Positions 6,640 to 33,799 of a stretch of 43,975 nt of DNA are shown here, piece by piece. The stretch comes from Candidatus Nomurabacteria bacterium (GTDB lineage: Bacteria; Patescibacteriota; Minisyncoccia; Phycocordibacterales; UBA9973), in assembly GCA_943357245.1 (NCBI GenBank), contig CALRGH010000003.1, forward strand, positions 1-43,975. Reading direction: 5' to 3'. The position numbers and the translations under genes were made by a program. The notes under the pieces were generated by a model. It had not been told where the DNA came from and ran no database searches. It saw nothing but the letters and a program-made list of their open reading frames with translations. The first letter of the stretch is position 1; each line of letters begins with the position of its first letter.

Positions 6640-6894
6640 ATGTATTTCATCTACATACTCCAATGTGCCGACAAGACATTGTATGTCGGTTCCACGAATA
6701 ATTTAGAGAAGCGACTGCATGCGCACAACAATTTAAAAAACGGTGCGCATTATACAAAAATTCGCCGGCCGGTGACACTTGTGTACTCCGAAAAAGTAAA
6801 AACGTATGCGAAAGCTCGCAAACAGGAGGCTTTATTAAAGCGATTGTCTCGTGCTGAAAAATTGGCACTCATTAAAAAATATAAAAACAAATAG
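6640..6894 (+). CDS. Small GIY-YIG nuclease (UPF0213/YazA-like)
   Basis: YFIYILQC..LYVGSTNNLEKRL..HN..GAHYTK.RRPV.LVYSE..A.K.E. Confidence 0.9.
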   Translation: MYFIYILQCADKTLYVGSTNNLEKRLHAHNNLKNGAHYTKIRRPVTLVYSEKVKTYAKARKQEALLKRLSRAEKLALIKKYKNK

Positions 6895-19649: not shown

Positions 19650-20516
19650 ATGAAAAAAATTTTTGTAACAATTATTTTAGTCAGCACTTTTTTATCTACC
19701 CATATTGCTTTTGGAGCGGGTTCTATTTCGTTTATCGAACAACCGCTTTGGTTTTCAAGTGACACTTTTACGGAAGGGCAGACCGTTTCTATTTATACAG
19801 CACTTTTTAATCAAGAACCGAGTCATCTTACGGGGACTATTTCTTTTTATGATAGGTCTGTATTGTTGGGTGAAAAACAATTCACCATCAAACCTCGTAC
19901 CGTAGAAACTCTTTCGTTTGATTGGAAAGTAATTCCAGGGGAACATGTTATTTCTATCACTGTTGCAAAACTCTCTCGAATTAATGCGCAGGGAGTAAAA
20001 GAGTCAATTAGCAGTACCCCTATCACTATTGAAAGTAAGAAAATAACAGTTGGAAACACACCGACACAAACAGAGGTACAAGAAACACTTCCAACCACAG
20101 CAACAGAAGTACTTAATCAGGTAGACAATGCTCAAGAGAAAGCTGCCTCATTCATCCCCGCGCCTATTAGAAAAGTTGCTGAGGCTGTTTTTTCTGGTAT
20201 AGAAAAATTTAGAAGTGATACTGCGCTTGCGGTGAGTACAAATCGCAATACATTAAAATCTCAAATAATTGATCAAGAAATAAAAGAAGCTGCAGATAGT
20301 ACAGGAGATAATGCTATTGCTAAATATGAAGGCAATGTCGGTCAACACACCGTAGATGCAAAATCTGCGTTTTCAAAACCATTTGAACAGGTACGATTAT
20401 TTTTTCTCAATCTTGGGACAATGTTTTTCTCAAATAAATTTTTGTTTTATGGCATAAGCGCACTCTTTATCTATATGGGTATTCGAGCAATTGTCTTGTT
20501 TATTCGTTCAAGATAA
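19650..20516 (+). CDS. Secreted CARDB/Ig-like protein with C-terminal TM helix
   Basis: Signal peptide, EGQTVSIY..N..W...PGEH.I pattern, C-terminal hydrophobic segment. Confidence 0.65.
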   Translation: MKKIFVTIILVSTFLSTHIAFGAGSISFIEQPLWFSSDTFTEGQTVSIYTALFNQEPSHLTGTISFYDRSVLLGEKQFTIKPRTVETLSFDWKVIPGEHVISITVAKLSRINAQGVKESISSTPITIESKKITVGNTPTQTEVQETLPTTATEVLNQVDNAQEKAASFIPAPIRKVAEAVFSGIEKFRSDTALAVSTNRNTLKSQIIDQEIKEAADSTGDNAIAKYEGNVGQHTVDAKSAFSKPFEQVRLFFLNLGTMFFSNKFLFYGISALFIYMGIRAIVLFIRSR

Positions 20517-20517
20517 A

Positions 20518-20821
20518 CCTCCACACCAAACAACCTTAAGAATTATGTTCTCGCTGTATATTTTAAAAAGTTTAAAAGACGATAATTTGTACATTGGATC
20601 AACGAACGATTTGAAACGTAGATTGGGAGAACATAATTCAGGAAAAGTGGAATCAACTAGATTTAGGAGACCACTTAAACTCGTATACGCAGAAGCCTAT
20701 TCCGTTGAGGATGAGGCGAGGAAACGTGAACATAATCTTAAGTTGCGTGCAAAAGTGTGGAAACAACTTTCTCTTAGAATAAAGAAATCTCTCGCCTCAT
20801 AAGGTTGTTATGGTGTGGAGG
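20518..20821 (+). mobile_element. Putative GIY-YIG mini-element with terminal inverted repeats and TAAA target-site duplication
   Basis: Left end CCTCCACACCAAACAACCTTA, right end TAAGGTTGTTATGGTGTGGAGG (inverted, one indel); TAAA directly flanks both ends. Confidence 0.7.
20545..20802 (+). CDS. Small GIY-YIG nuclease (85 aa)
   Basis: LYILKS..LYIGSTNDLKRRL.EHN.G...ST..RRPLKLVYAEAY..A..RE..LK. Confidence 0.9.
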   Translation: MFSLYILKSLKDDNLYIGSTNDLKRRLGEHNSGKVESTRFRRPLKLVYAEAYSVEDEARKREHNLKLRAKVWKQLSLRIKKSLAS

Positions 20822-20862
20822 TAAACTTTTTCAATTCTTTATAAAAACTGTATAATGCGTTA

Positions 20863-21126: not shown

Positions 21127-22853
21127 TGATACGATTCAGAAAAAAAAGGAGAATAAGAACAGATTTCGTTGAGCCTGACGAAATTTTTATTGATGCAAAA
21201 AATTTACCTGAATTTGACACACATCAATTTGAGGGTCGCATAGGACAATCGATTAGCAAAAAGACAATCATCACGCTCGGTATTATTTTTTTGATATTAG
21301 GAAGTGTTGGTGTTGGCAAATTAACGCTTTTGCAATTGGTACACGGACAAACCTATTTTGAAAAAAGTGAAAAGAATAGTCTTGATCAGAAACCAATTTT
21401 TGCAAATCGAGGCGTCTTTTATGATCGCAATGGATTGCAATTAGTAAAAAATGTATTTCCAGAAACACGGGCACTTTCGGTAGATGAGGGCATTCGTGCA
21501 TCAACAATGGAAGATGTGCCTAAACGTGATTACTATGATGCACCAGGATTTGCGCACGTGCTTGGCTATGTGAGTTATCCAAAACAGGACAACAATGGTG
21601 CGTATTGGCAAACAGAAGTAATTGGTAAAAGCGGTGCAGAGAAAGAATTTAATGACATGCTTGCAGGGAAAAACGGGAAGACACTTTTTGAACGTGATGC
21701 ACACGGTAACAGTATTTCAGAAAATCAGATTGATGCACCAGAAGATGGTAAAAATATTACCCTTTCTATCGATGCGCAACTGCAGGCAAAACTTTTTAGT
21801 GAGATGCAGTTATTTGCGGAAGCACATGATTTCTCTGGAGGTACAGGTATTATTATGAATGTAGAAAATGGGGAATTACTCGCACTGACAAATTATCCAG
21901 AATTTGATTCCGAAATCGTGTCTCTTGGGCATGATGCAACAAAAATAAAAGAATATCTGACTGATACTAGAACTCCATTTTTAAATCGTGCAATTGCAGG
22001 GCTCTACACACCAGGATCTATTGTGAAGCCATTTGTTGCTATGGGAGTGCTCGAAGAAAATATTATTGATCCGTACAGACAAATTCTCTCAACAGGACAG
22101 ATAGAAATTCCTAATCCGTACGATCCCGAATTGAAAACCATTTTCAAAGATAACAAAGCGCACGGACTTGTTGATTTGCGTCATGCTATTGCGGTGTCTT
22201 CAAACGTATATTTTTATGAAGTCGGAGGTGGCTATAAAGGGCAACAAGGACTCGGTATTGATCGGATTAATAAATATCTGACCCTTTTTGGGTTAGGTGA
22301 AAAAACAGGTACAGACATTGAAGGTGAAGCAGATGGTGTCATTCCAAATCCCGAGTGGAAAGCAAAACGATTTAATGGTGACATATGGCGTATTGGTGAT
22401 ACGTATAACACCGCAATTGGTCAGTATGGAGTGACGGTGACACCGCTTTCTATGGTGCGTGCAGTCGGAGCAATTGCAAATAACGGCACATTACTTACGC
22501 CAGTGATTCAAAAGGAGACAAAAGGAAAAGTTGAAACATTACCGTTTGAGTCTGAGAATTTCAACATAATCCACGAAGCAATGCGTTTGTGTGTGACTGA
22601 CGGCACGGGACAAACATTGAATACTCGTGATGTCGAGGTCGCAGTAAAAACAGGAACCGCGCAAGTTGGTATTTCAAAAAATTTACTTAACTCTTGGAGT
22701 ATGGGATTTTTCCCGTATGAAAATCCGAAGTACGCATTTATTATCATGATGGAACGTGGACCAAAAGAAAATCAGACGGGTTCATCTATTGTGATGCGTC
22801 ATGTGCTTGATTGGATGGCAGTGGAGGCGCCGGAATATTTAAAGAGCGAGTAA
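21126..22853 (+). CDS. mrdA: Penicillin-binding protein 2 (class B transpeptidase)
   Basis: TM helix, RG.FYDRNG, PGSIVKP (SxxK), SSN, KTGT. Confidence 0.9.
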   Translation: MIRFRKKRRIRTDFVEPDEIFIDAKNLPEFDTHQFEGRIGQSISKKTIITLGIIFLILGSVGVGKLTLLQLVHGQTYFEKSEKNSLDQKPIFANRGVFYDRNGLQLVKNVFPETRALSVDEGIRASTMEDVPKRDYYDAPGFAHVLGYVSYPKQDNNGAYWQTEVIGKSGAEKEFNDMLAGKNGKTLFERDAHGNSISENQIDAPEDGKNITLSIDAQLQAKLFSEMQLFAEAHDFSGGTGIIMNVENGELLALTNYPEFDSEIVSLGHDATKIKEYLTDTRTPFLNRAIAGLYTPGSIVKPFVAMGVLEENIIDPYRQILSTGQIEIPNPYDPELKTIFKDNKAHGLVDLRHAIAVSSNVYFYEVGGGYKGQQGLGIDRINKYLTLFGLGEKTGTDIEGEADGVIPNPEWKAKRFNGDIWRIGDTYNTAIGQYGVTVTPLSMVRAVGAIANNGTLLTPVIQKETKGKVETLPFESENFNIIHEAMRLCVTDGTGQTLNTRDVEVAVKTGTAQVGISKNLLNSWSMGFFPYENPKYAFIIMMERGPKENQTGSSIVMRHVLDWMAVEAPEYLKSE

Positions 22854-22930
22854 GTAGATAGTAGTAAATAGTAAATAGGTTCGAACAGAAAACTGTCTCA
22901 GTGTGTCATCCCGGCGGAGGCCGGGAACCA
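22849..22930 (+). repeat. Composite repeat: heptamer array plus GTCATCCC-type REP palindrome
   Basis: 39 nt block matching 25028-25066 with one mismatch, then GTCATCCCGGCGGAGGCCGGGAACCA. Confidence 0.75.
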
Positions 22931-22978
22931 GGCTGTTTTTGTTTGATTTTTATTATCTTTTTTGCTAAAGTACGATTA

Positions 22979-23550: not shown

Positions 23551-25032
23551 ATGGCCTCATTAGAAGAAATGCGCGCAGAGCGCTTGAAGAAATTAGCATT
23601 ATTAAAAACCGCTGGCATGGATGCATATCCTGCATCTATTTCGCGCGATATGAGCATTGCGGATGCAATTGCGCAGTTTGATACACTAGTTGATACTGAC
23701 AAGCAAATCTCGCTCGCAGGACGCGTGATGTCTATTCGCGGGCAAGGTGCGATTTTATTTGCAAACCTTTTTGATGGCACCGGCACTTTCCAGCTCTTTT
23801 TGAAAAAAGATGGCATGCCAGAAGATATCTTCGCCCTTTTTGTAAATACGGTAGACATGGGCGATTTTATTTCTGCCACAGGAACCTTCATCACGAGTAA
23901 AACTGGAGAGAAAACACTTCTTGTTTCCGGTTGGTCCATGGCATCAAAATCACTCCTTCCATTACCAGAAAAGTGGGCAGGACTTTCAGATGAAGATGAA
24001 CGGCTTCGCAAACGATACTTGGATGCTATTGGCAATCCAGAACTCTTTGCACGATTCCACAGTAGAGCAAACATCATCAAATATATCCGTGCATTTTTTG
24101 ATGCAAAAGGGTTTATGGAAATTGAAACACCTATTCTCCAAAATCAAGCTGGTGGTGCGATGGCAAAGACATTCAATACCCATCACAATGATTACGATAT
24201 GGACATGGTACTCCGCATCGCAATGGAGCTTGAGCACAAGATGATGATGGTTGCGGGCTATAATCGCATTTATGAAATCGGCAAAAATTTCCGCAATGAA
24301 GGCTCTGATCCAACACACATCCAAGAATTTACGATGATGGAATGGTATGCCGCGTATGAGACACTTGAGACGAATATAAAGTGGACCGAAGAATTACTCA
24401 AAGGACTCGCAAAAGACGTCATAGGGAAAATGTCTTTTATGATTGCAGGGGAAGATGGCGAAAAAGTCGAAGTGAATTTCGATGGCGTGTGGCCACGCGT
24501 TCGATTTGGTGATTTGCTCAAAGAAAATGCAAATCTTGATATGCAATCTGCAAGTGTGGATGATATCAAAGAATCAGCAAAAAAGTGGGGTATGGATGCC
24601 AAAGAAATCGCAACGACAGGTCGTGCGAATTTGCTCGACTTTATTTATAAAAAATCTTCTCGCAACAAAATAGTCCAACCGACATTTGTCATGGATTATC
24701 CCGGAGAATTAAAACCGCTCGCACAGCAAAATTCGGATGGTACTGCCTGCGTCGCACAGCTCATAATCTGCGGCGCAGAAATCACAAACCAATACGCAGA
24801 GCTTGTAAATCCAATTGTCGAACGCGAACTCTTCGAATCCCAAGCAAAAGCAAAAGCAGATGGAGACGCAGAAGCTATGGGTATGGATGAACGATTCCTT
24901 ACAGCAATGGAGCACGGTATGCCGCCAATGACTGGTTTTGGTCTTGGTATTGATCGTCTCGTTGCACTTCTTACCGAACAAGACAATCTCCGCGAAGTGA
25001 TTTTCTTCCCGATAATGAGACCAAAACAGTAA
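23551..25032 (+). CDS. lysS: Lysine--tRNA ligase (class II)
   Basis: OB-fold AGRVMSIR, EIETPIL..GGAMA, EIGKNFRNEG, GMPPMTGFGLGIDRL. Confidence 0.96.
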   Translation: MASLEEMRAERLKKLALLKTAGMDAYPASISRDMSIADAIAQFDTLVDTDKQISLAGRVMSIRGQGAILFANLFDGTGTFQLFLKKDGMPEDIFALFVNTVDMGDFISATGTFITSKTGEKTLLVSGWSMASKSLLPLPEKWAGLSDEDERLRKRYLDAIGNPELFARFHSRANIIKYIRAFFDAKGFMEIETPILQNQAGGAMAKTFNTHHNDYDMDMVLRIAMELEHKMMMVAGYNRIYEIGKNFRNEGSDPTHIQEFTMMEWYAAYETLETNIKWTEELLKGLAKDVIGKMSFMIAGEDGEKVEVNFDGVWPRVRFGDLLKENANLDMQSASVDDIKESAKKWGMDAKEIATTGRANLLDFIYKKSSRNKIVQPTFVMDYPGELKPLAQQNSDGTACVAQLIICGAEITNQYAELVNPIVERELFESQAKAKADGDAEAMGMDERFLTAMEHGMPPMTGFGLGIDRLVALLTEQDNLREVIFFPIMRPKQ

Positions 25033-25208
25033 GTAGATAGTAGTAAATAGTAAATAGATTCGAACAAAGCACAGAGCGGGAGAAAGCGAAGCTTTCTCCC
25101 GCTCTGTGTCATTCCGGACGCAGCGATAGCGGAGATCCGGAATCCATCGCGAATGAGCGAAGCAATGGATCCCCGGTTCTATCTGCGACAGATAGCCCGA
25201 GGATGACA
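25028..25208 (+). repeat. Composite repeat: heptamer array, 18 bp perfect hairpin, inverted REP pair (REPIN-like)
   Basis: CACAGAGCGGGAGAAAGC-GAA-GCTTTCTCCCGCTCTGTG, then TGTCATTCCGG..CCGGAATCCA and inverted TGGATCCCCGG..CCGAGGATGACA. Confidence 0.8.
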
Positions 25209-25568: not shown

Positions 25569-25701
25569 AACAAATGTTTTCTTCACTATACTCATTCTTT
25601 TGTACCTGTCAAATATTTTAGAACCTAACAACTAGAAACTAGAACCTTGCTCTGCTATACTTGTCTTGTCTCTACTTACTACTAACTATTTACTACTTAC
25701 T

Positions 25702-26112
25702 ATGTTGTTACAAATCATCATCGCTGTTATTGTCTCTATGATCCTTGGTTTTATTTGGTACGGACCGCTTTTTGGAAAAGTGTGGGGTAAAATTGTGGGA
25801 GTTGATATGGAGACTGCGAAAAATGATCCAGAAGTGAAAAAGCGTATGCCGTTAATGGCTGCAACTAATATGGCGCTTTCACTTGTTACTATTTTTATGC
25901 TCGCGGTTATTTTCAAACGACTTGACGTTACTGATGTGACAACAGGTGTTCGTGTCGCATTTTTTCTCTTCGTTGGTTTTATTTTTCCTCTCATAGGTAC
26001 GTTTGCTCTTTGGAGTAGTAAATCGCGCCGTCTCGCATGGGAAATGTTTTTCGTGATGATGGGCTATCAGCTTATTATGTTTGTATTTTACGGGATTATT
26101 CTTTCGTTTTAA
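25702..26112 (+). CDS. DUF1761 family membrane protein
   Basis: LGFIWYGPLFGK.W motif and four TM segments. Confidence 0.8.
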   Translation: MLLQIIIAVIVSMILGFIWYGPLFGKVWGKIVGVDMETAKNDPEVKKRMPLMAATNMALSLVTIFMLAVIFKRLDVTDVTTGVRVAFFLFVGFIFPLIGTFALWSSKSRRLAWEMFFVMMGYQLIMFVFYGIILSF

Positions 26113-32558: not shown

Positions 32559-32575
32559 TTAATTTCTTTGCTATA

Positions 32576-32612
32576 CCCCCACACCAACTTTTAAAAAAGT
32601 CTGGTGTGGGGG
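32576..32612. mobile_element. Non-autonomous 37 bp palindromic element sharing ends with the GIY-YIG mini-element
   Basis: CCCCCACACCA..TGGTGTGGGGG flanked by TATA on both sides. Confidence 0.65.
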
Positions 32613-32626
32613 TATACTATATCTGT

Positions 32627-33799
32627 ATGAATCTTTTTGGTATTTCTTCTAAAAACCACACCGAACTCATCATCGATATCGGCTCTTCGAGTGTCGGTGT
32701 TGGATTTGTCCAATATGCACAAGATGCGCTTCCTCGTATTCTTTTTATCACCCGTAAAGAAGTGCTTTTTGATGAGTCTGTAGACGCAACACATATTTTA
32801 GAAAAAACGGCGAACTTACTCGATATTGCACTCCGCGAGGCAACTACCGGTGCGCATTTTACTCATCCTGACCGCATCACCATTTCACTTGCTGCGCCAT
32901 GGTACGCAAGTCAAGTGCGCAGTGTTCGGTATACCGATGATGGAAAAAAATTTAGAGTGACGAAATCTCTTGCTGAAGGACTCATTCAAACAGAATATAA
33001 AGCATTTCTCAAAGACCTGCAGGCGTCGCCTTTTTTTGATGCACTTAATGCTGAAATAATTACGAACAGTGTTGTGGATTCAAAAATAAATGGGTATAGC
33101 ATCAAAGATCCACTGGGTTCACAAGGCACCTCATGTGCATTTGATGTATATTTTGCAGTAGCTTCACGTGACGCGAATAAACGATTCCACGCGCTTGTGC
33201 AGGAATATTTTCCTCGTGCACGACATATTCGGTTTACTGCATTTGGATTTGCATCATGGCTGGCCTTTCGAACTATATTTCCGCACACCGATGAATATCT
33301 TTTTTTGGATATAGGTGGAGAAATTACTGATGCAATGGTAGTGCGGGACATGGTTCCTCGGAGTGGTGGTTCATTCCCATACGGTAAACACACCATGCTC
33401 CGCGCATTCGCTACGGCAACAGGCTCGGAAGGTGAGCACACACTTTCGTTATGTAATTTGTATCAAACGCACATGCTTGGTGAAAAAGAACGTACCACTA
33501 TCGATGCAGTGCTCCAAACCACTCGCAAAGAATGGCATACCAAACTCGAGACTGCTATTGAGACAATAGAAACAGGGTTGTTGCCGTACAAAGTATTTGT
33601 CACCATCGATGCAGACTGTGCGCCGTGGTTTTTGGAAATGTTACGCAATCAAGCACTTCGACAGTTTGTTGATACGTCGCAACAGTTTGACGTCACCTTA
33701 ATTGATGCAAATGTCGTGCAATCATATGTTACAATAGAAGCACAAGCATCTCCTGACTCGTTTATTATATTGCTCGCCATTGCAAATAACACTCTATAA
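32627..33799 (+). CDS. FtsA/PilM-like actin-fold protein (divergent)
   Basis: IIDIGSSSV and FLDIGGEITD phosphate-loop motifs, SFPYG. Confidence 0.7.
   Translation: MNLFGISSKNHTELIIDIGSSSVGVGFVQYAQDALPRILFITRKEVLFDESVDATHILEKTANLLDIALREATTGAHFTHPDRITISLAAPWYASQVRSVRYTDDGKKFRVTKSLAEGLIQTEYKAFLKDLQASPFFDALNAEIITNSVVDSKINGYSIKDPLGSQGTSCAFDVYFAVASRDANKRFHALVQEYFPRARHIRFTAFGFASWLAFRTIFPHTDEYLFLDIGGEITDAMVVRDMVPRSGGSFPYGKHTMLRAFATATGSEGEHTLSLCNLYQTHMLGEKERTTIDAVLQTTRKEWHTKLETAIETIETGLLPYKVFVTIDADCAPWFLEMLRNQALRQFVDTSQQFDVTLIDANVVQSYVTIEAQASPDSFIILLAIANNTL

Follow-up and report, generated by a model that had tools for sequence, protein, structure and literature searches.

Prokaryotic transposons are classed by their enzyme as DDE, DEDD, HUH, serine or tyrosine elements. 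The smallest known insertion sequences (ISs) are of the IS200 type and measure about 700 bp. Transposition by Y1 enzymes is not known to make a target duplication. GIY-YIG nucleases are described in other settings. The homing endonucleases among them have a C-terminal DNA-binding domain and one cognate site, and neither inverted ends nor a target duplication are described for them (PMC1564403). The prokaryotic Slx1 branch is presented as minimal, vertically inherited and of a presumed role in repair (PMC1564403). The window, i.e., the whole stretch of 43,975 nt from a Candidatus Nomurabacteria bacterium that was analysed, contains a 304-bp unit with terminal inverted repeats (the arms) between two TAAA words. 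Its only gene codes for an Slx1-like GIY-YIG nuclease of 85 aa. The unit is read here as an autonomous IS-like element with its own nuclease as the most likely agent of movement, at a probability of roughly 0.6.

An earlier note on this DNA had compared the unit with the systems of repetitive extragenic palindromes (REPs), their hairpin-forming doublets (REPINs) and REP-associated tyrosine transposases (RAYTs). The comparison holds for the layout: one small nuclease gene lies between inverted copies of a repeat, and the repeat also occurs, with the same core, as many intergenic palindromes that form hairpins. Beyond that it is loose. The nuclease has the GIY-YIG instead of the HUH/Y1 fold, the units duplicate 4 bp of the target and they have spread between species with unrelated flanks. 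The Y1 genes of this genome are flanked by another hairpin, CCCAGGAGGC..GCCTCCTGGG, whereas the gene between the CCCCCACACC arms is the GIY-YIG gene. The family resembles ISs and their MITE derivatives (miniature transposable elements with inverted repeats), e.g., those with IS630/Tc1-type TA or IS5-type 4-bp targets, in the terminal inverted repeats that bracket the gene, a short duplication at an A/T-rich target, empty sites, gene-less derivatives with two ends and insertion polymorphism between strains. Unlike a classical IS, the unit encodes no transposase of a recognised class (DDE, DEDD, HUH, serine or tyrosine), and with about 300 bp it has less than half the size of the smallest IS. 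The GIY-YIG homing endonucleases (I-TevI, Seg) share the nuclease superfamily, the selfish lifestyle and the small genes wedged between host genes. They differ from the bare Slx1-like domain found here, which comes in units with arms, duplications, many sites and unrelated flanks. The best sequence and fold matches are the UPF0213 proteins BH0048 (1zg2) and EF2693 (1ywl) and eukaryotic Slx1, which also consist of a GIY-YIG domain in minimal form and lack the Asn found at the C-terminal side in the UvrC/I-TevI lineage (there is no conservation at position 64). In contrast to that branch, vertical and presumed to act in repair (PMC1564403), the gene is here the sole cargo of a mobile unit. A full-text search of the literature outside subscription journals and supplements yielded no prokaryotic GIY-YIG element with inverted ends, target duplication or REP- or MITE-like derivatives.

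The 304-bp unit is very probably a mobile element. Metagenome contigs of the runs X1, X2, X3 and X5 were compared at the locus; X1 to X3 come from one study, and of the runs with small shares X3 and X5 were included. The X1 contig holds the entire stretch and may be the source of the window, hence it is not independent. In X2 and X3, from strains about 98% identical to the window, position 20514 is joined to 20824 and the unit is absent, with 309 nt skipped. Their flanks match with 15 and 3-5 differences over the compared parts, and both read AGAT-AACTTT at the joint. The more distant relative X5 has 155 different letters at the site. A sister species of the same genus (G001, assembly 87% complete) shares 79-81% nucleotide identity over the region with the genome holding the window (G000; 563,906 bp, 33 contigs, 41% G+C, 88.6% complete). 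Its site is empty too: the upstream gene ends with FIRSR-stop, followed by 37 nt and the next gene, with neither arms nor a GIY-YIG gene. If the unit is taken out of the window together with one TAAA, a spacer of 38 nt remains.

The arms travel with the gene across relatives. Small GIY-YIG genes were present in 53 of 61 related genomes, with up to nine per genome, and 18 of the 34 genes with enough flanking sequence were tightly bracketed by an inverted repeat (L004 and L006 gave no row). The five closest homologues, with 53-63% identity and from five other genera, have arms of the CCCCCACACC type or a variant differing by one to two bases; more distant GIY-YIG clades have different arms. A scan of one genome per species with an alignment of the clade yielded 566 relatives. 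The best 80 were used, and 75 had enough flank. Bracketing was scored at z >= 4.5, with shifted positions as controls. Arms with a CCCCCACACC-type core bracketed 67 of the 75 loci, compared to 1 of 264 shifted controls. An independent metagenome scan detected them at 53 of 64 distinct units and at 1 of 219 controls. The units are 286-356 bp long (n = 66). The start of the right arm falls within the last codon and the stop for most relatives, roughly 4 nt ahead of the point where the stop codon ends.

Unit identity between species is often 80-89%. Both flanks are alike only in the pair L153/L164 (341 and 244 nt), and a dozen further pairs have only short pieces of flank in common (47-156 nt), several of them tRNA genes. 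On the protein tree, the arm-core type clusters with 18 changes, compared to 32.3 in shuffles (0 of 200 as low), as expected if gene and arms are inherited together.

The units lie between short direct repeats. Abutting direct repeats of at least 4 bp were present at 40 of 66 units, compared to 5.4% in cross-paired controls. A 4-mer test with the ends fixed at the C-run and the G-run covered 91 distinct units from the genome and metagenome collections. Identical direct 4-mers flanked 42 of these, with 3.9% expected from cross-paired controls; three units had inverted 4-mers and the others neither. The direct 4-mers include TAAA, TTTA, TTAT, ATAA, TTGA, CCTA, TAGG and CACA. The earlier note had proposed a transposon-like mini-element with a 4-bp duplication, and the empty sites in close strains and in the sister species, the arms of the homologues and the generality of the direct repeats bear this out. 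The three findings that it had named as fatal did not occur: homologues have the flanking repeats, no relative compared carries the gene at this locus without them, and the repeats go together with this GIY-YIG clade.

Target choice has a pattern. A tRNA gene adjoins 16 of 66 units. The CACCCACACC subclade is located at the 3' end of tRNA-His (L118, L124, L125, L137 and L141): the tRNA gene runs to ..TAGG, the CACCC of the arm completes it, and TAGGCACCC is present again after the unit. The GCCCCTCAC subclade is inserted after base 10 of tRNA-Ala/Val (L136, L151, L152, L159, L165, L167, L171 and L181). The first 10 bases of the tRNA stay upstream, and the terminal G run of the arm together with a 7-bp repeat restores the tRNA gene. 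L154, L177 and L140 are further units at tRNA gene ends. In tRNA-end units the arm tip rebuilds the tRNA end, a 9-10-nt tRNA fragment remains at the other side, and the duplication length is compatible with 4, 7 or 9-10 nt. About a dozen units (L138, L139, L145, L150, L157, L158, L161, L163, L168, L173, L179 and L182) are located in TTAT-CCACA-type sites with a TTAT/ATAA duplication, which we take to be DnaA-box-like. At several loci, the base run past the right repeat copies the left arm tip. The target type varies along with the arm-core type, which suggests that one element-encoded factor reads arms and target; the GIY-YIG protein, the sole candidate, would be this factor.

The repeat also occurs without the gene. 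G000 has 16 further copies of the form TATA-CCCCCACACC..GGTGTGGGGG-TATA, one of them in the window. Fourteen span 36-43 bp between the TATAs, and two have bodies of 71 and 101 bp. The sister species has seven gene-less copies; a 104-bp member there has TTTA at both sides. For four G000 copies (C18:5136, C9:12771, C22:4354 and C10:4970), G001 has clean empty sites with a single TATA, which identifies the gene-less copies as insertions that duplicate 4 bp. One site is occupied in both genomes (G000 C11:7731, G001 C21:4922), and the G001 copy C26:862 has an empty site in G000 (C14). The short copies share ends and duplication and are polymorphic between the two genomes, as MITEs are. Their intergenic locations, between tandem as well as divergent genes, are often close to a gene start, and the right flank is usually TATACT. 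Simple terminators were ruled out by these locations. A pair of core-like words on contig C7, 944 bp apart, is located inside the 16S rRNA and was rejected as a chance match. Folded as single-stranded DNA, the palindrome in the window gives a hairpin with a single bulge (-19.4 kcal/mol, z -8.5); in the sister species, a different repeat occupies the same intergenic region. Genomes with variant-core units had no variant-core short palindromes (0 of 5 for GCCCCTCAC and 0 of 5 for CACCCAC), and G018 and G022 have the unit without a short palindrome being found. Units without short palindromes in these twelve genomes indicate that the arms are not a pre-existing repeat.

The features in the window are collected in Table 1. 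The unit (20518-20821) has a single open reading frame, from the ATG at 20545 to the stop at 20800-20802. Its right arm is the reverse complement of the left arm plus one extra base. Gene, unit length, ends with one indel and the two TAAA words, the left one covering the stop of the upstream gene, are all as the earlier note had described them. The inverted repeat exceeds chance, with a local alignment z of 8.5-9.8 compared to shuffled flanks. The 11-mer core (at most one mismatch) occurs four times in the window, with 0.32 expected, and 0 of 100 shuffles reached four. Upstream lies a reading frame of 288 aa (19650-20516). This protein and the downstream one of 87 aa matched no Pfam family at E <= 0.01, and the names 'CARDB' and 'mreD-like' that had been given to these neighbours find no support. 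The next gene along codes for a PBP2-type transpeptidase (Pfam). A search of the window against Rfam at gathering threshold detected a tRNA only, and NCBIfam had no family above its cut-off. The extra base directly after CCACACCA is a T in the gene unit and a G in most short copies of G000, and this one-base difference between the arms places a hairpin bulge at a fixed position. The bulge is missing from relatives in other genera.

Table 1. Positions of the 304-bp unit, its flanking repeats and the gene-less palindrome in the window.
Feature	Positions	Strand	Remarks
Left 4-bp direct repeat TAAA (target-site duplication)	20514..20517		20514-20516 is the stop codon of the upstream open reading frame
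Left terminal inverted arm CCTCCACACCAAACAACCTTA, 21 nt	20518..20538		Core CCTCCACACC
GIY-YIG nuclease gene, 85 aa plus stop	20545..20802	+	Stand-alone Slx1-like / UPF0213-like; PF01541
Right terminal inverted arm TAAGGTTGTTATGGTGTGGAGG, 22 nt	20800..20821		Extra base after CCACACCA; includes the stop of the gene
Right 4-bp direct repeat TAAA	20822..20825		
Gene-less palindrome TATA + CCCCCACACCA..TGGTGTGGGGG (37 bp) + TATA	32572..32616		12 nt upstream of the ATG at 32628

The protein is a complete GIY-YIG domain. It matched the Pfam family PF01541 with 60.3 bits (E 2.3e-16, cut-off 22.6). Across 42 sequences, Y16, G18, R26, H30, E50 and E62 are invariant and Y5 is nearly so; the tyrosines of GIY..YIG, the central Arg and the C-terminal Glu of the superfamily are thereby accounted for. 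Profile matches in the PDB were the UPF0213 proteins 1zg2 (E 4.7e-12) and 1ywl (E 1.2e-10) and SLX1 (E 8e-4). The AlphaFold2 model (pLDDT 96.4) has the beta-beta-alpha-alpha-beta-alpha fold of the superfamily, with strands at residues 2-9 and 15-20, helices at 23-32 and 36-41, a strand at 44-52 and a helix at 55-84. Foldseek matches were 1zg2 and the nuclease domain of Slx1, a structure-specific nuclease, with TMq values of 0.59-0.66, and HIGLE and I-TevI were also matched. With 85 aa, no auxiliary domain and no conservation of column 64, the site of the UvrC-type Asn, the protein belongs to the stand-alone Slx1-like / UPF0213 group. The homing-endonuclease model TIGR01453 gave 20.7 bits, below its cut-off of 56.05, and covered residues 4-32 only of a single-domain protein. 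A predicted homodimer scored 0.80 and one control still reached 0.63, which speaks neither for nor against a dimer. Purifying selection acts on the gene, with dN/dS values of 0.04-0.17 among 10 pairs of related units (2 of 12 were skipped due to unequal length). Selection and invariant residues together argue that the gene is needed.

Other enzymes were searched with four families, DDE_3, DDE_Tnp_1, rve and Y1_Tnp. DDE_3 and DDE_Tnp_1 had no match in G000, G001, G004, G010 and G021, and the only rve match in these five was sub-threshold, in G004. None of the three exceeded its cut-off in the six clade-bearing genomes. Across the 61 relatives, DDE_Tnp_1 was present in 4, rve in 10 and DDE_3 in 2. 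All five genomes have Y1_Tnp genes. IS200/RAYT-like Y1 genes of 218-245 aa are encoded in G000 at C6:17780-18436 and on C2 (23310-24047, reverse strand) and in G001 at C46:1243-1899. The 218-aa gene on C6 and its G001 counterpart sit between the halves of a GC-rich hairpin, CCCAGGAGGC-CTTG-GCCTCCTGGG; these two Y1 proteins are identical though the neighbouring DNA differs. The second Y1 gene of G000 has a related GC-rich hairpin on its downstream side only. No CCCCCACACC arms were found beside the Y1 genes. The low counts of the three DDE families in these incomplete assemblies and the different hairpin of the Y1 genes make other enzymes unlikely, and the unit's own nuclease is the most likely motor.

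For the cutting enzyme, the joining chemistry and the mode of movement, cut or copy, we infer the following course. The nuclease would recognise the outer 10 or so nucleotides of both arms (CCCCCACACC type) and cut at the junctions of arm and flank. Staggered nicks, 4 nt apart, may open the target, in this case at the A/T-rich TAAA or TATA. Ligation and repair by the host would then connect the ends and close the gaps, which produces the 4-bp duplication. Gene-less copies would be two arms fused head to head that move in the same way, with the nuclease supplied in trans. In relatives, units often land beside sequences similar to the arm tip (tRNA-His at its 3' end, tRNA-Ala/Val at the 5' end, DnaA-box-like sites), which suggests that the reader of the arms may also pick the target.

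Several observations speak against an autonomous element driven by its nuclease. GIY-YIG enzymes are hydrolytic nucleases, and we know of no strand-transfer activity among them. A domain of 85 aa without a separate DNA-binding domain is very small for reading 10 nt. The empty allele (AGATAACTTT) is one A short of a clean removal of 304 + 4 nt: 309 nt are missing where 308 are expected, with TAAC instead of TAAAC. An indel of the strain within the A run could account for the difference, as could a footprint of excision or a base added at the insertion junction. An exact 4-bp direct repeat is absent from 46 of the 91 units; 16 of these have a direct repeat with one mismatch and 14 an inverted one with one mismatch. 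A subgroup with TTYA..TRWA flanks looks inverted rather than direct, and one subclade has 7-bp repeats. In G000, a single copy of this clade carries the gene. The core of its arms is CCTCC and the inner part AACAACCTTA, compared to CCCCC and ACTTTT/GACTTTT in the short copies. They differ at one core position on both sides and in the whole inner part, and the short copies resemble the L140 arms more. The short palindromes were probably not derived from the resident gene copy. G001 gained at least one palindrome after the split from G000, yet its 87%-complete assembly has no gene of the clade. The view of the unit as autonomous member of a palindromic family, taken by the earlier note, is therefore retained in part: a gene-less family with the same core exists and is insertion-polymorphic, but the resident copy is probably not its source, the G001 palindromes lack a clade gene, and ten other genomes have the unit without short palindromes.

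Some of these points would fit a passenger gene, which we consider unlikely. Arms and duplication would be made in trans by another enzyme, for instance a transposase that was not assembled or not recognised, or an enzyme of the host for junctions or repair, and the GIY-YIG gene would be cargo kept for functions such as addiction, defence or end processing. The tiny protein with its hydrolytic chemistry and the palindrome gain in G001 without a detectable clade gene agree with this, and a helper could be hidden in assemblies that are 77-100% complete, with repeats that assemble badly and often remain unassembled, or beyond the four families surveyed. A unit of 286-356 bp has, however, no room for anything else than the gene, the gene-plus-arms layout recurs in many lineages, and purifying selection on the gene is strong. 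The three DDE families are present in just 2-10 of the 61 relatives. Y1 enzymes are not known to make target duplications and flank a different hairpin here. Other GIY-YIG clades with their own arms fit an enzyme matched to its ends better than a shared helper. In another alternative, a homing endonuclease gene sits inside its target palindrome: the palindromes are an independent family, mobile by other means or of use to the host, the arms are the target halves, the product of the selfish gene cuts intact palindromes at the centre and the gene is copied in. GIY-YIG enzymes are classical homing endonucleases (PMC1564403), and the gene takes the very position that the loop has in a short palindrome. 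With 16 gene-less palindromes and one with the gene in G000, and seven without a clade gene in G001, the numbers would suit such a system. It is nevertheless improbable. At the empty sites in close strains and G001 both arms and gene are missing, and none of the ten variant-core genomes, nor G018 or G022, offers a gene-less palindrome as a homing target. The resident gene copy has arms that mismatch the resident palindromes, the protein has no homing-type DNA-binding domain (TIGR01453), and the units occupy many unrelated sites.

We give almost no credence to a unit that is not mobile at all. The inverted repeat would then be an RNA or DNA structure for gene expression, e.g., an operator, a terminator or a stem pairing the mRNA ends, and the two TAAA words would be there by chance. 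The arms do bracket the transcript closely, the right one holds the stop codon, and the short palindromes fold as strong hairpins. Presence and absence among near-identical strains contradict this explanation, as do the single-TATA empty sites of gene-less copies, the excess of direct repeats and the unrelated flanks around units of 80-89% identity. A terminator would also be superfluous in the divergent promoter regions in which short copies are located.

Further repeats and small GIY-YIG genes were seen in these genomes. The Y1 hairpin is a third palindrome system in the 0.56-Mb genome. A second, larger family has the form TGTGTCAYCC-hairpin-GGRWCCAGGC and is located in the window at 22902-22932 and 25105-25208. 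G000 has roughly 25 of its units and G001 roughly 55, which occur singly or in inverted doublets. Inverted units of this family bracket a second GIY-YIG clade at G000 C1:62235-62593, orthologous to G001 C11:16912-17271, and further G001 copies with such brackets are located on C40 and C13. Family and gene together have a REPIN/RAYT-like layout. A third small GIY-YIG gene (window 6640-6894) has no flanking inverted repeat (z -0.1), nor does its G001 orthologue (C30:3178-3440). This conserved, armless paralogue may be a stable housekeeping form. A fourth gene lies inside a 253-bp unit (G000 C10:22342-22594) whose 22-nt arms, 95% complementary, overlap with its start codon and its stop codon. In G001, 118 nt of unrelated sequence occupy the orthologous site (C44) instead. 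A motif, GTAAGTAGATAGTAGTAAATAGTAAATAG.TTCGAACA, directly follows gene ends at 22850-22887 and 25029-25066, with an inverted copy near 25671-25707. Several of its frames contain many stop codons, and C2 of G000 has a similar run.

The element may represent a new, very small class of transposons in ultra-small bacteria of the candidate phyla radiation (CPR). A GIY-YIG nuclease as the sole protein of an element with terminal inverted repeats and target-site duplications would be a new class, with a mechanism that differs from those of the DDE, DEDD, HUH, serine and tyrosine enzymes, and with about 300 bp it would push down the size limit known for autonomous mobile elements. It would account for up to nine small GIY-YIG genes in tiny CPR genomes and for intergenic palindrome families in them. 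Part of the UPF0213/Slx1-like family would gain a function and move from repair to mobile, and nuclease and DNA end would offer a minimal sequence-directed pair for study. We regard it as an even bet that the stand-alone Slx1-like GIY-YIG proteins of Patescibacteria are the transposases of a large, undescribed superfamily of autonomous elements of about 300 bp with clade-specific arms. These would then form the sixth catalytic class of prokaryotic transposons and the smallest self-mobilising DNA transposons known. In some genomes they would have caused REP- or MITE-like bursts, with at least two such families in this 0.56-Mb genome. Their targets would be chosen by likeness to the arm tip, so that some lineages insert in and rebuild tRNA ends and others use DnaA-box-like sites.

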